DNA from: Octopus vulgaris
Taxonomy: Eukaryota
DNA length: 64,000 nt
Direction: 5' to 3'
Assembly: GCA_951406725.2 (NCBI GenBank)
Contig: OX597829.1
Span: forward strand, 3,472,001-3,536,000
Positions within the stretch are counted from its first letter, which is position 1, and each line of letters begins with the position of its first letter. Below are positions 18,201 through 39,900 of the stretch, one piece after another. A program made the position numbers.

Positions 18201-21200
18201 TTAAATATAGCAATTTATTTGGATCTGTTTCAATATTTGCAGCAGCACTAAGCTCCCCAAACATGTCCATACAATCTTAAAGGGAGAACCATAGAAACAC
18301 CAACAGTAATTAAGATAGAATAGTCAGGTTTCATTTGATTATAAATCTCTTTAATCAATCCTGAAACAATTTAACCCTTTAGCATCCAAATTACATTGCT
18401 AAATGTATTGCTTAGACATGATATTTTAAGGTAGATGTGAAAGGCTAGATCTGGTTAGTTTAAACATAAAAAAAGGGTAGAATATTTGGTCTTGAAGGTA
18501 GGAAGGTAGGATTAAATATTATGGGGCTAAACCACTCAATTACGTCATAATGTTGGTTGTATAAATACAACCAATATATATATATATATATATGCACTTT
18601 TGACAAGTTGTGGTGCACCTGAGCACTGTATACAATAATTTCATTATTATTAATTTTTTTATATTGGTAAATTGCTACAAAAATAGATAAATTTTAAAGG
18701 TTACTCATTCTTTTATTAATTCTGAGTTTTAAAAAAGAACATATTTTAGTAGATACCTTTTTACCCTCATTTCCTACTGGGGTAGCCAAGTATTCCTTCT
18801 ACAGCAAGACTTATCTCTATGCCTCAATTATACTTTAACCACTCAACTGGTACAAACCCAGCTCCCTCAGTACTGCTTTCTCTCCCACTTGAAAGGTCTT
18901 TGTTTTGCAAGTTACTTGGTGACCCTGTTGTTGGTCGCATGTAAAAAGCACCCAGTACGCTCCAGCCACAGAAACCTTACCAAAGCAGACAATGAAGCCT
19001 ACTGCAACTCTCTGGCTTGCAAGCTCTAGTCAAACTGTCCAACCCATGCCAACAAAGAAGATAGACATTAAATGATAATTATTCTTCCATCCCTTGTTAA
19101 CCAAAGCAAGTTATAATGAAAGCTCTTTATCTTCTTTTTTTTGTCCAGTTCTTTTTCTCAGTATTTATATTTTCTAATATTATTTTTTAAATTCCAAAAT
19201 CAAAATTTGGTGTTTAAAATTTATATAATTCCTTCAATTTTCTTTTGAAGCTATCTCCTGTTGAGCGGTATGCTGTCCTTTTCTTGGAAACCCAAATGGA
19301 ACCATTCTGTAGTGAGGAGCTTCAGATGGCAGAAGTAAGTAAAATTAATTTTTAAAGCCTGAGTTTGTTTGCATGCATTTGTGTATTTATTTCTTTGATG
19401 TTTACCTTTAAAACGTTTTCATTTTCTTGTCATAAAATTTAAAAGAGTTAATTAAAATATTTTTTTGTGTGATTAATATACAGTTGTAATTGAAGTAAAA
19501 ATTTAACAAAGATAAAATTGACTAATTAAGAATGTGTGCATTTTGTTTTGTAGGAAGATATTGAGAGTGCTAAAAAAGACTGGGAGTTGGCACGACTCAA
19601 ATCTCTGAAAGAAGAGGAAGAAATAAGAGCTGAATTAGAAGAAGATGAGATGCTGTTTACATATACAAGGGATGATGCATATAATCAGGTGAAAAAATCT
19701 AAGTCTAAAAAGAATTCTGGTAACAAAAGCAATAAGAAAAAGAGTAATTATAAGAATTTTAATAGTAGGCAAAACTCTTCTGATGAAAAGATAACTTCTA
19801 GCCGTAAGAGTTCTCGAAGATCTGCTGCTAGCTCAGACATTGCTAAATCTCGGAGCAATGGACTAAGTAGCTCTAGAAAGTCACTCATTAATAATAATGA
19901 AAAAGATGAAAACAGTTCAAGTCGGGGTGGGAAAATGAAGGGCATTAATTCCGTAAGATCTGAACACTCTTCACCAGTAAACACTGGTATGTTGAAGCAT
20001 GCTCTTAAGAAGGATGTTTCAAAGATTCCATCCAATCCTAGTACCCAAAACAAGGCTACTTCAAATCAAAAAGTGCTAAATCTTAATTCCATTTCCAGTA
20101 AGAACACTAATTCTGTAATTAACACCAAAACATCTGCTTCTAGTACTGTTGGCAATCAAAAGTTGGTAGGGTCTAAAAGAGCTAAAAAAGGAGTTGGGGC
20201 TAAAAAGAAGGTAGGCGGTCCTGGTAGAAAACCGGTTGGTTCAGGCAAAAAAGGTGCTGGGTCTAAGAAATCCAATACCAAAAAGGCTAACTCTAACAAA
20301 GTTGCATCTACTAAGAAGTTATCAGGTGGTGTAATATCTAAAAAATCAGCTGCTACATCAACAGTTGGTACATCCACTACTAGTACTACTACTAGCAAGA
20401 AAGGGTCACAGGTAAATTCTGTTAAAAAAATTAAAGTGAATTCAAAGAAACTGCTTAGAGCTACCCTAATAGCTCAGGAGAAACTAGCTGCTGATTTACA
20501 GGTAGCGGCCACTACGGCTGCTTCAACACCTGTTCCAGTTTCTTCTGCTAGGATATTAGAAACGGCCATAAAAGTTTCAGAACATGTGAAAGTAGAGTCG
20601 AAATCAACCAGCAAACTACCAACCAATACAACCGTAAAAGTGTTGTCAGCAGCGGCAAAAACTACTCATACCTTATCAGTTAGCACATCCACTCAAATGG
20701 CTTGTGCATCACCTGTTAGCACCTCTGTCACACGTGTTTTGCCTGTGACTTCCACTGGAACTTCTGTTCCACATATTGTTCCAGTCAGTGCAGCTACATG
20801 CATTGTATCTGGATCAACAGCTGCTCGTGTCTGGACAACCTTAGCTCAAAAAGTACCAATTGGTCATATGATGCCAATCAGAGCTTTAGGACAAAAAATA
20901 CAGGTGCCAATGTCGGCTTTAACTCAAAAAGTACCTGTCAATACTATCACTCAAAAAGTACCTATTTCAACTATAACTCAAGTTCCTGTGTCTGCTATTA
21001 CCCAAGTTCCTATTAGTAGTATCACTCAAGTACCTGTCTCTGCTATATCTCAGAAGAAGGTACCTGTGTCCACTATAACTCATGTCCCTGTGTCTGCTAT
21101 TACACAGAAAATACCTGGAACTGCTGTTACTCAAGTCCCCATTACAGCAATCACACAGAAGGTTCCTATTAAAACCTATTCCCAAAAGGTTCCTGTCACT

Positions 21201-36900: not shown

Positions 36901-39900
36901 AAACGACAGCCTCCGCTAAGGCAGACTACCAACCAAGGGCAGAAGAATCCTAAACACACATCTGTGCTTCAGAGCAGCGGTATTAACTATGATTTACCAT
37001 TGGATCCAGTTCAAGTTGCTTTGATCAGAGCAGAGAGGATTCAACGAGAGAAGAAGCAGAACCAAGCTGCTGCAGCCGCTGCTGTAAGTTTTCTTGTTGT
37101 TCACTTTGGTTGTTGTTATTGTTTGTATTGGTTTGAATGCTACATTTTATAGTGCAACTAGTATTTGGGTGAATGGTGTTTGTTACAGTTCATTTTGTGA
37201 CTGCGATGGTTTTGTTAAGCAGTGTCGATTTTAATAATTTTGTAATTAATAATAATAGTATTACGGAGATGTACTTGCATAGCAAGTGATTTAATCTGAG
37301 ATCGTGTGCTGGAACAAAAACAATTGCAGCGTGGAAGGTGTTTATAAGCCATTTAAGAAACACAAATTTAATTTGTCAAAATATTTTCGTCGCTTTGAGA
37401 CCACGACCTGTTCACTGACAAAACTTCGTGCAGGTCGCGGTCTGAAAGTGATGAAAATATTTTGACAAATTAAATTTAAATGTTGAAGTGAATCGAACGG
37501 TTTTTGTGTGTTTCTTAAATGGCTTATAAACACCTTCCACACTGCAATAATAGTATTTTATAAGCTTAAAGCTTATAGGTGATCACTGCACAATGACTAA
37601 AGAAGATAGCCTAATAATGAGGCTTATAAGCCCTCCACAGAAAAAGTAGGTTTACCTGTACACCTGGGTTTCAAAACCACCCCTCTTTGTTTACACGACC
37701 AAGTGTGCTATGGTTACCCTAACACACAAACCTACTTCTTTCTGTCAGATTTAAGAACTATAATTAGTTTATAGTTGTTTTTGTAAACAAACTTTCATAT
37801 ATTTATAAATGTATCAACCTCTATCTACACATTCAAATTTTGAATTCTAACTTTTCATGGAATGTTTCAATCCTCTTCAATTATTTAATTTTTTCACTCA
37901 TATTCGGTGTATCACCATGGCTTGATATACTGGTCTTTTCTTATAAATGCTGTGCTTGATATTGGAATTCAGAATTTGAAAGTGTAGATAGAGGTTGACA
38001 CACTATTCTTGCTGGTCTCCACACATGTAAGCCCAAAGGTAGGTTATTTTGTGTCAATTTGTATCTACAGGAATGTTCTCCAGAAGAGAAGAATGGAACC
38101 ATTAGGTTCCTAACTTCAAAATTGCAATAGAGAATTAACCTTTTATTTTAAAATTTTGAATGCTATGTCACGTTGCTTGCTGACAGCTTTCTGAGGAGAT
38201 AGAATATGAGTGTTAATAGTGGCTTTATGGTGGCTTTGAATGCAATTTCTAGACATCTTGTGTCTGTGTGTGCATCCATTATAGATTGTGATTTATTCAT
38301 AATTATATACACCTCATATATATATATATATCATGCTAACATGGAAAACGAACGTTAAACGATGATGATGATGATATAACTCCAAGAAAGTTAGGGGTTG
38401 TAAATCCAACCCACTAAGGGATAATATCTATCTAATATACTGCTGGTAGAATACCCAATTATTAATACACAAGTGTTGTTTAATAAATAAATAAGTTAAC
38501 ATAATTTAATGTCCAAATGTTGATGAACCACCTGTTGTTCTCCTCCATTTTCTTATTTGCTATATCATCATCATCATCATCATTTAGCGTCCGTTTTCCA
38601 TGCTAGCATGGGTTGGACGGTTCAACTGGGGTCTGGGGAGCCCGAAGGCTGCACCAGGCCAGTCAGATCTGGCAGTGTTTCTACAGCTCGATGCCCTTCC
38701 TAACGCCAACCACTCCGAGAGTGTAGTGGGTGATTTTATGTGCCACCGACACAGGTGCCAGACGAGGCTGGCGAATGGCCACGCTCGGATGGTGTTTTTA
38801 TGTGCCACCAACACAGGTGCCAGATGAGGCTGGCAGACGGCCACGCTCGGATGGTGTTTTTATGTGCCACCGACACACGGTGCCAGATGAGGCTGGCGAA
38901 CGGCCACGATCGGATGGTGTTTGTTACGTGCCCACAGCACGGAGGCCAGTCGATGCGGTACTGGCTACGGCCACGTTCGGATGGTTTTCTTGTGTGCCAC
39001 CGGCACTAGTACCACAAAGATACAAATTCCATTGATGTTCATCTATTTTGATTTGTTTTGATTTGAGGTGTATATAATTATGAATAAATCACAATCTATA
39101 ATGGAGAGGGTTGCAAAAACCCTTAGGATATATATATATATATATACACATACACACACACACATATATAGAAGGTGCAGGCGTGGCTGTGTGGTAAGTA
39201 GCTTGCTTACCAACCACATGATTCCAGGTTCAGTCCCACTGCATTACACTTTGGGCAAGTGTCTTCTACTATATTCTCAGGCCAACCAAAGCCTTGTGAG
39301 TGGATTTGGTAGACGGAAACTGGAAGAAACCCGTCATCTATATATATGTGTGCGTGTTTGTGATTGTCCCCTCACCATTGCTTGAGAACCAATGCTGGTG
39401 TATTTACGACCCCGTAACTTAGCAATTTAGCAAAAGAGACTGGTAGAATAAGTTCTAGGTTTACAAAGAATAATTTCTGGGAGCGATTTGTTCAACTAAA
39501 GACGCTGCTCCAGCATGGCCACAGTCAAATGACTGAAACAAATAAAAGAATATATATATATATATATTTATACTTATATATATATTTTGATATATATATA
39601 TTTATAAATAGAAATAATATATTTTCTAAATCTCTCAGATTTATTCAGTAGTAACACAATAAAGTGGTGGTATGCTGTCAACTTAATGTGACAGTCCCAT
39701 GAAAGGGAATAATACTACTGCTATTTAACCCTAGGAAGCAGCACCACTTCCTGTCGGCCTTGACATATTTACTGTGTCCTTATGTTTACAAAGGGGAGGA
39801 GATAAGCACCCCCACCCAGCTAGTGTGTTTGTGTGTGTGTCTGTGTGTGTGCATATCTTTGTCCATTCAATTGATGTTTTGTTGGTATCGATGCAGCATG

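Follow-up and report, generated by a model that had tools for sequence, protein, structure and literature searches.

In Drosophila, a single gene, domino, supplies two remodelers that differ in their C-termini. As described in the isoform sections of Scacchetti et al. 2020 (PMC7239659), DOM-A carries a SANT domain and a glutamine-rich (Q-rich) region, DOM-B ends in a tail without a predictable fold, and the two isoforms define NuA4/TIP60-like and SWR1-like complexes, respectively. Yeast and humans use separate genes for H2A.Z exchange and for H4/H2A acetylation, and flies use isoforms of one gene. Here we analyze a stretch of 64,000 nucleotides (nt) from Octopus vulgaris (contig OX597829.1 of assembly GCA_951406725.2, positions 3,472,001-3,536,000, forward strand, with 0 N), which we call the window and to which all coordinates below refer. 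The window is best explained as the 3' half of a single domino-type remodeler gene of the SWR1/SRCAP/EP400 family, with two predicted C-terminal coding paths that part at a splice donor at position 19689. All exons and signals described lie on the + strand.

Similar C-terminal isoforms of dom are reported for honeybee, Nasonia, Harpegnathos, Tribolium, and the house spider (Scacchetti et al. 2020, PMC7239659). In the sections cited, the authors suggest that the isoform mode is widespread in Arthropoda and treat what flies do as a feature of arthropods and as an alternative evolutionary route. The portion of a 2024 preprint on SRCAP/TIP60 structure that bears on the fly proteins repeats the DOM-A/DOM-B equivalence. 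A preliminary description of the window had drawn on the same fly and vertebrate background, which agrees with these sections of PMC7239659. Our literature search returned no description of a domino isoform switch outside arthropods. The main text of a paper on the cephalopod epigenetic machinery (PMC9476566) contains no mention of SRCAP, EP400, domino, Tip60, KAT5, or H2A.Z, and the structure of the fly domino gene, sought in PMC6837581 and PMC7142294, is given in neither. The dom orthologues with such isoforms are all from arthropods, unlike the octopus locus, which would be the first such case outside Arthropoda in the literature searched. A two-arm design of this type is, on the sources cited, already known from arthropods, and the present locus adds a further case.

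How does the octopus locus compare with the described systems? It resembles fly domino, as portrayed in the sections cited, in that one gene has a shared N-terminal part with the ATPase and two C-termini that would arise by alternative RNA processing. Where the fly has a SANT/Q-rich C-terminus and a shorter, foldless one, the octopus locus has a SANT path, probably Q-rich as well, and a domain-free tail of 835 residues. The two differ in that the DOM-B-specific part of the fly protein is given as about 489 residues long (2009-2497), and in that the octopus isoforms are deduced from DNA alone. Human EP400 is alike over residues 2190-2528, along which five exons of the spliced path align in order, and Q-rich open frames, probably part of the gene, lie downstream in the octopus. 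Unlike EP400, the octopus protein has an ATPase C-lobe that is much nearer to SRCAP, with 132.9 bits as compared with 74.1 for EP400, two post-ATPase exons that match SRCAP only, and 17 extra residues at the end of the SANT exon. Human SRCAP, in turn, is the best match of the C-lobe and the sole match of the exons at 16637-16819 and 19251-19334 (SRCAP 2244-2336). Past this point human SRCAP continues into a long low-complexity C-terminal tail that contains AT-hooks, and it is not known to have a SANT domain. The octopus tail differs from it in showing no detectable similarity to SRCAP (0 matches at E<=1) and no GRP or RGR core.

Results

The switch lies in an exon that opens at 19554, behind the acceptor ttttgtag. 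From there the frame remains open to 22196 and encodes 880 amino acids, with 45 codons before the donor CAG/GTGAAA (19686-19694, GT at 19689-19690, phase 0) and 835 after it, and it closes with TGA at 22194-22196. The 45 shared codons (19554-19688) end in YTRDDAYNQ. With the donor used, they are joined in phase to exons that match human EP400 in order; with the donor ignored, they run on into a long tail. The DNA thus contains two coding paths, and either one looks like sequence that has been retained for coding. These observations support two mutually exclusive C-terminal coding paths of one locus that split at 19689, and a DOM-A/DOM-B-like architecture is well supported at the DNA level. We consider it probable that both isoforms are made from the locus. 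The preliminary description had likewise proposed one locus with two coding arms dividing at 19689. Collinearity with EP400 on the spliced arm and the 835-codon open frame on the read-through arm bear this out, and on re-reading the DNA we found all of its coordinates and frames to be correct.

The read-through tail (19689-22196) appears to be coding sequence. It has 0 stops over 835 codons, as the preliminary description had read it, whereas 33-76 stops (mean 51.2) occurred in 500 dinucleotide-preserving shuffles of the same DNA, none of which had an open run of more than 192 codons. The other five frames contain 25-100 stops, and across all six frames the window has no other stop-free run longer than 200 codons. 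After the 12 other called donors of this gene, the frame closes within 1-40 codons. The tail also has the periodicity of codons. G+C at codon positions 1, 2, and 3 is 0.441, 0.475, and 0.273, compared with a flat 0.296, 0.289, and 0.285 in introns, and the pattern is alike in all three parts of the tail, including the non-repeat parts at 19689-20600 and 21702-22193. Regional G+C is 0.407 in 20001-22000 and 0.281 in 22001-24000.

The tandem repeats within the tail provide a further line of evidence. Their periods are 27, 24, and 54 nt, each a multiple of three. Among twelve 9-codon units, compared as 66 non-independent pairs, differences fall at codon positions 1, 2, and 3 in a ratio of 277/155/375, and codons that differ by a single base differ synonymously in 172 cases and nonsynonymously in 59 (the same non-independent pairs). 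Three units with identical nine residues differ solely at synonymous sites. Moreover, the 82 codons that separate the donor from the first ATG of the tail are open, which would occur with P about 1e-03 at intron composition. This fits a tail that is translated as a continuation of the shared exon and not from a start of its own.

What does the tail encode? Numbered in the 880-residue frame, residues 46-300 are rich in S (22%), K (20%), and N (11%) and have a net charge of +53, and residues 301-430 are T/A/S/V-rich with a net charge of +6. Residues 431-720 consist of about 290 residues of T/V/P/Q/K/I repeats, organized in 9-residue units of the QK-V/L-P type (net charge +28). The remainder, residues 721-880, is mixed and slightly acidic (net charge -5). 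The 880-residue frame matched 0 Pfam families at E<=0.1 and hence contains no SANT domain, in keeping with the preliminary description, which had this arm lacking one. It also had 0 matches in the PDB at E<=1, in a sequence library that includes full-length chains of human SRCAP (3230 residues) and EP400, and the 835-residue tail gave no usable sequence match in the ESM Atlas. We call the tail SRCAP-like or DOM-B-like because of its position and its lack of a domain, not because of sequence similarity.

The spliced path follows human EP400 closely. Homology searches, here and below, took each exon alone. The 45 shared codons align with EP400 2190-2230 (E 7.1e-03 with the full-length chain and 4.2e-04 with a shorter construct); all four of their PDB matches are EP400 constructs, and SRCAP is not among the matches at E<=10. 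The next matching exon (34525-34681) carries the PPTPPQDD motif, ends in phase 1, and aligns with EP400 2247-2294 (E 3.2e-16), again with EP400 constructs as four of four PDB matches. It is followed by the pre-SANT exon, where the SANT domain begins (35793-36040; EP400 2300-2378, E 2.5e-12), the SANT exon (36411-36638; EP400 2379-2437, E 7.2e-22), and the post-SANT exon (36790-37083; EP400 2437-2528, E 1.2e-26). The exons at 35793-36040 and 36411-36638 together cover EP400 2300-2437, which is its SANT region; with the exon at 36411-36638 alone, the Myb-like models of Pfam scored 20.4 bits, under the 22.9 cut-off. Altogether, the five exons are strictly collinear with human EP400 within 2190-2528, their phases match throughout, and the sole interruption of collinearity is the donor at 19689. 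The spliced path is required because of this collinearity across the donor. The phase-0 route from the donor to the PPTPPQD and SANT exons, which the preliminary description had traced, is upheld by both phases and the order of the EP400 matches.

Two details of these exons deserve mention. The acceptor before 34525 is pyrimidine-rich and reads tctctgtttacatag, and the exon opens with an ATG (34525-34527) at the acceptor that aligns to an internal EP400 residue. This ATG is the only hint of an independent downstream start, which is unlikely. The last 17 residues of the SANT exon (36588-36638) have no counterpart in human EP400: the alignment covers residues 1-59 of 76, and the post-SANT exon picks up again at EP400 2437. 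They may represent an extension specific to the lineage, or else a region with an alternative donor.

Between the switch exon and 34525, the spliced path may include a candidate microexon of 36 nt (29046-29081; 12 codons, phase 0 at both ends), which has the acceptor ttgcag and the donor CCT/GTAAGT. Under loose criteria, 19700-34500 contains six in-frame candidates that are free of stops and flanked by splice signals, and among these it alone has a GTAAGT donor. With its in-frame flanks (24 residues), it had 12 PDB matches, none of them EP400, in a search that is underpowered for 12 residues; the best of them, to antibody constant regions and EPS15, are due to chance. In EP400, the gap between the first two matched segments is 16 residues, compared with 13 at the octopus join with the microexon and 1 without it, so that inclusion of the microexon suits the gap better than a direct join. 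Membership of the microexon in the spliced path is plausible but unproven, and the frame does not depend on it. The preliminary description had reported it as part of the path: the coordinates, phase 0, and splice signals stand, but homology does not support it.

Downstream of the SANT region lies a probable Q-rich exon with glutamine runs (39735-40160; open frame to 40334, acceptor not fixed), which ends at the donor ATG/GTAAGC at 40161. Two further Q-rich open frames, at 54422-54817 and 59087-59431, likewise contain long runs of glutamine and have donor signals. The Q-rich frames would be spliced to the SANT exons. Ten open frames of 80-114 residues in 23.2-33.4 kilobases (kb) matched 0 Pfam families, so neither gene parts nor transposon genes were detected there.

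Is the switch donor weak? The preliminary description had spoken of a single weak donor without the consensus. Donors were scored by consensus matches out of 9 and by the predicted energy of the U1 duplex. Site 19689 matches at 7/9 positions and is literally non-consensus, but its weakness relative to the other donors of the gene did not hold up. Among the 12 other called donors the count ranges from 6 to 8, the constitutive donors at 11673 and 13630 both read CAG/GTAAAA, and the predicted U1 duplex of 19689 (-8.4 kcal/mol) is surpassed by just one of the 14 donors, whose energies range from -10.0 to -4.0. For scale, the mean predicted U1 energy of 367 intronic GT sites is -2.24 kcal/mol. On both measures, we therefore rejected the idea of a weak donor at 19689. 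If some transcripts skip it, poor U1 binding is a less likely cause than bound regulators or a competing 3'-end formation within the long intron.

A short isoform also needs a 3' end. The first AATAAA after the stop of the tail, found by a hexamer scan as a consensus match only, lies at 23094-23099 and is a candidate poly(A) signal. A GT-rich stretch lies 50-80 nt downstream of it, and further AATAAA hexamers occur at 23452 and 24194. Long blocks of TA/TG-type microsatellite at 22540-22900 and 53100-54390 cross-match at 74-80%, and the first of them lies in what would be the 3' untranslated region if the short isoform is made. Inside the open frame itself there are two phase-0 donor-like sites, AAG/GTAGGC at 20211 (-9.2 kcal/mol) and CAG/GTAAAT at 20412 (8/9 matches, -8.3 kcal/mol), and no donor-like site with >=7/9 consensus matches occurs in the frame after 21060. 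We rejected the possibility that the whole frame is one giant constitutive exon with a donor at its 3' end, given this lack of a suitable site and the closure of the frame by TGA.

Upstream of the switch, the gene encodes an SWR1-type motor. The first part of Helicase_C, which begins the ATPase C-lobe, is encoded at 11503-11672, with boundaries from a signal scan and the donor CAG/GTAAAA at 11673; the Pfam match (E 6.7e-07) was obtained with a translation of 11493-11687 that includes a few flanking intron codons. The second part of Helicase_C is encoded at 12052-12248 (Pfam E 1.3e-14) and ends at the phase-2 donor CCG/GTATAT at 12249. The best PDB match of this exon is human SRCAP 2100-2165 (132.9 bits, 7.9e-39), followed by yeast Swr1 at 116.5, INO80 at 93, and EP400 at 74.1 bits. 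The C-lobe is thus nearest to SWR1-type remodelers, with SRCAP and Swr1 above INO80. A post-motif exon that completes the C-lobe (13515-13629), called from its open frame and signals, has a phase-2 acceptor matching the donor at 12249 and the donor CAG/GTAAAA at 13630; a Pfam search with it returned a chance-level DUF match only.

The two exons that follow resemble SRCAP. The post-ATPase acidic exon (16637-16819; donor GAG/GTAAAT at 16820) matches SRCAP 2244-2306 (E 1.1e-06), with human SRCAP as its sole PDB match at E<=10. A 28-codon exon that is in phase 0 at both ends (19251-19334) weakly matches SRCAP 2309-2336 (E 0.083); SRCAP is again the sole PDB match, and the two exons are collinear. 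Compared with the human paralogs in the PDB, the locus is therefore a mosaic, SRCAP-only to 19334 and EP400-only from 19554. The gene is identified from these matches as of the domino type because its ATPase and post-ATPase exons are SRCAP-like while its SANT module is EP400-like. The break between the two homologies is the intron at 19335-19553, which lies 45 codons 5' of the switch donor and not at it. Therefore, both predicted isoforms would carry the EP400-type YTR-D-DAY motif.

The window opens with S/T/Q-rich exons and an exon at 7551-7864, all before the C-lobe, an arrangement compatible with the ATPase insertion. S/T/Q/V/P-rich open frames on the same strand are found 5' of the C-lobe at 592-852, 961-1194, 1630-1750, 3946-4317, and 6258-6420, and in composition they are similar to the read-through tail. 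Probably they encode the long insertion by which SWR1-type ATPases are divided. The HSA domain and the SNF2 N-lobe would sit 5' of the window.

Two families of dispersed repeats occupy introns of the window. One, of about 180-280 nt, has copies that are 81-87% identical at 30140-30414, 33961-34236, 38561-38823 (inverted), and 55469-55667. It looks like a short interspersed element, and neither ARAGORN nor Rfam detected a tRNA-like part in it. The other, of about 210-235 nt, has copies that are 73-80% identical at 4503-4712, 12639-12863, 49341-49564, and 57562-57793. The window as a whole had 0 Rfam matches at gathering thresholds and 0 tRNAs by ARAGORN.

Discussion

The exon from 19554 can be read as a composite exon, at which the choice between splicing and read-through would be made at 19689. 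When the donor is used, the 45 shared codons would be joined in phase 0 to 34525, probably via the microexon at 29046. The spliced product would contain the PPTPPQDD motif, the SANT domain, the post-SANT segment, and the Q-rich region; it would be a DOM-A/EP400-like isoform and presumably the scaffold of a TIP60/NuA4-type acetyltransferase complex. When the donor is left unused and the transcript undergoes intronic cleavage and polyadenylation, for which the AATAAA at 23094 is a candidate signal, 835 further codons would be translated. This product would end in the basic, repeat-rich tail and would be a DOM-B/SRCAP-like isoform without SANT, with a likely role in H2A.Z exchange. The choice of isoform may thus reflect a competition between splicing and intronic 3'-end formation, and the two products would divide functions as they do in Drosophila.

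Several observations weigh against this proposal. The AATAAA nearest to the stop is about 900 nt past it, and this consensus match at 23094 is the single indication that the tail serves as a terminal exon. The strong predicted U1 pairing of the donor offers no explanation for regulated skipping, if any occurs. The sites at 20211 and 20412 could give longer SANT-containing isoforms in which a basic insertion precedes the SANT module. For the 45 shared codons, similarity to EP400 is modest (E 4e-04 to 7e-03), and the pairs in the comparison of repeat units are not independent of each other. Finally, the tail has no detectable similarity to the C-terminal region of human SRCAP (PDB, E<=1), and we rejected an AT-hook identity for its basic segment given that it contains no GRP or RGR core.

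Could the same DNA be explained without a switch? One way would be for the locus to make only SANT-containing proteins, with the open frame as an extended internal exon that is spliced from inside, at 20211 or 20412, and adds a basic insertion. Both sites are in phase 0 and could be joined in frame to the acceptors at 29046 and 34525, which are in phase 0 too. Yet about 1,780 nt past 20412, including the entire repeat array and the final 160 codons, are open, periodic, and diverged in a synonymous manner, which this explanation leaves unaccounted for. The frame lacks any >=7/9 donor-like site after 21060, and EP400 has merely 16 residues between the matched segments. We regard this explanation as unlikely. 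We give still less weight to the idea that two genes lie side by side, a SRCAP-like gene ending at 22196 and an EP400-C-terminal/Eaf1-like gene with SANT and polyQ that begins at about 34.5 kb. It would fit the ATG at the start of exon 34525 and the fact that exons to 19334 match SRCAP only and exons from 34525 EP400 only. It is at odds with the 45 codons before the donor, which match EP400 2190-2230, 16 residues ahead of the segment in exon 34525, and with the pyrimidine-rich acceptor before 34525, where the ATG corresponds to an internal EP400 residue. In addition, the ten intervening frames matched 0 Pfam families, and neither an HSA domain nor another 5' part of a second gene is visible. 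A SANT scaffold without HSA would lack what Eaf1 and EP400 use for holding the actin/Arp module, which counts further against a second gene. It is scarcely credible, lastly, that the 835-codon frame is untranslated, an intronic low-complexity or tandem-repeat tract that is open by chance. Short tandem repeats do make up about 290 of its 835 residues, and it has no match to a Pfam family, a solved structure, or an Atlas entry. However, none of the 500 shuffles fell below 33 stops, and the non-repeat parts (19689-20600 and 21702-22193) are open as well, with the same periodicity. Synonymous changes exceed nonsynonymous ones between repeat units, G+C drops from 0.407 (20001-22000) to 0.281 (22001-24000) around the end of the frame, and the 12 other donors are followed by <=40 open codons.

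The preferred reading, that of one gene with two C-terminal arms, raises the question of when the arms arose. The architecture could be real but convergent with the arthropod one, in which case it would tell us nothing of the gene from which SRCAP and EP400 descend. In favor of convergence, similarity between the tail and SRCAP was not detected, the break between SRCAP and EP400 homology falls in the intron at 19335-19553 and not at the switch donor, and the digest of PMC7239659 calls the fly and vertebrate solutions convergent evolution. Against convergence, the insect and spider isoforms taken together with the present locus would most simply reflect one protostome origin. We consider convergence a serious possibility, if somewhat short of an even chance. 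As a hypothesis, we suggest instead that the switch is ancestral: it would be homologous to the arthropod DOM-A/DOM-B switch and would date to at least the protostome and possibly the bilaterian ancestor, with vertebrate SRCAP and EP400 as duplicates that each fixed one arm. This proposal is tentative, and we hold it with less than even confidence.

What would an ancestral switch mean for the family? Finding the same two arms outside arthropods would suggest that the isoform switch is older and that the vertebrate paralogues are a later partition of it. If this is true, SRCAP would have kept the read-through tail and EP400 the spliced SANT/polyQ arm, and the change from SRCAP-only matches (to 19334) to EP400-only matches (from 19554) would be a trace left by the partition. 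On the practical side, gene predictors can report one arm only or split such a locus in two, and the invertebrate annotations of this family merit checking. If the ancestral history is true, the family would offer a clean case of splice-isoform subfunctionalisation by gene duplication.

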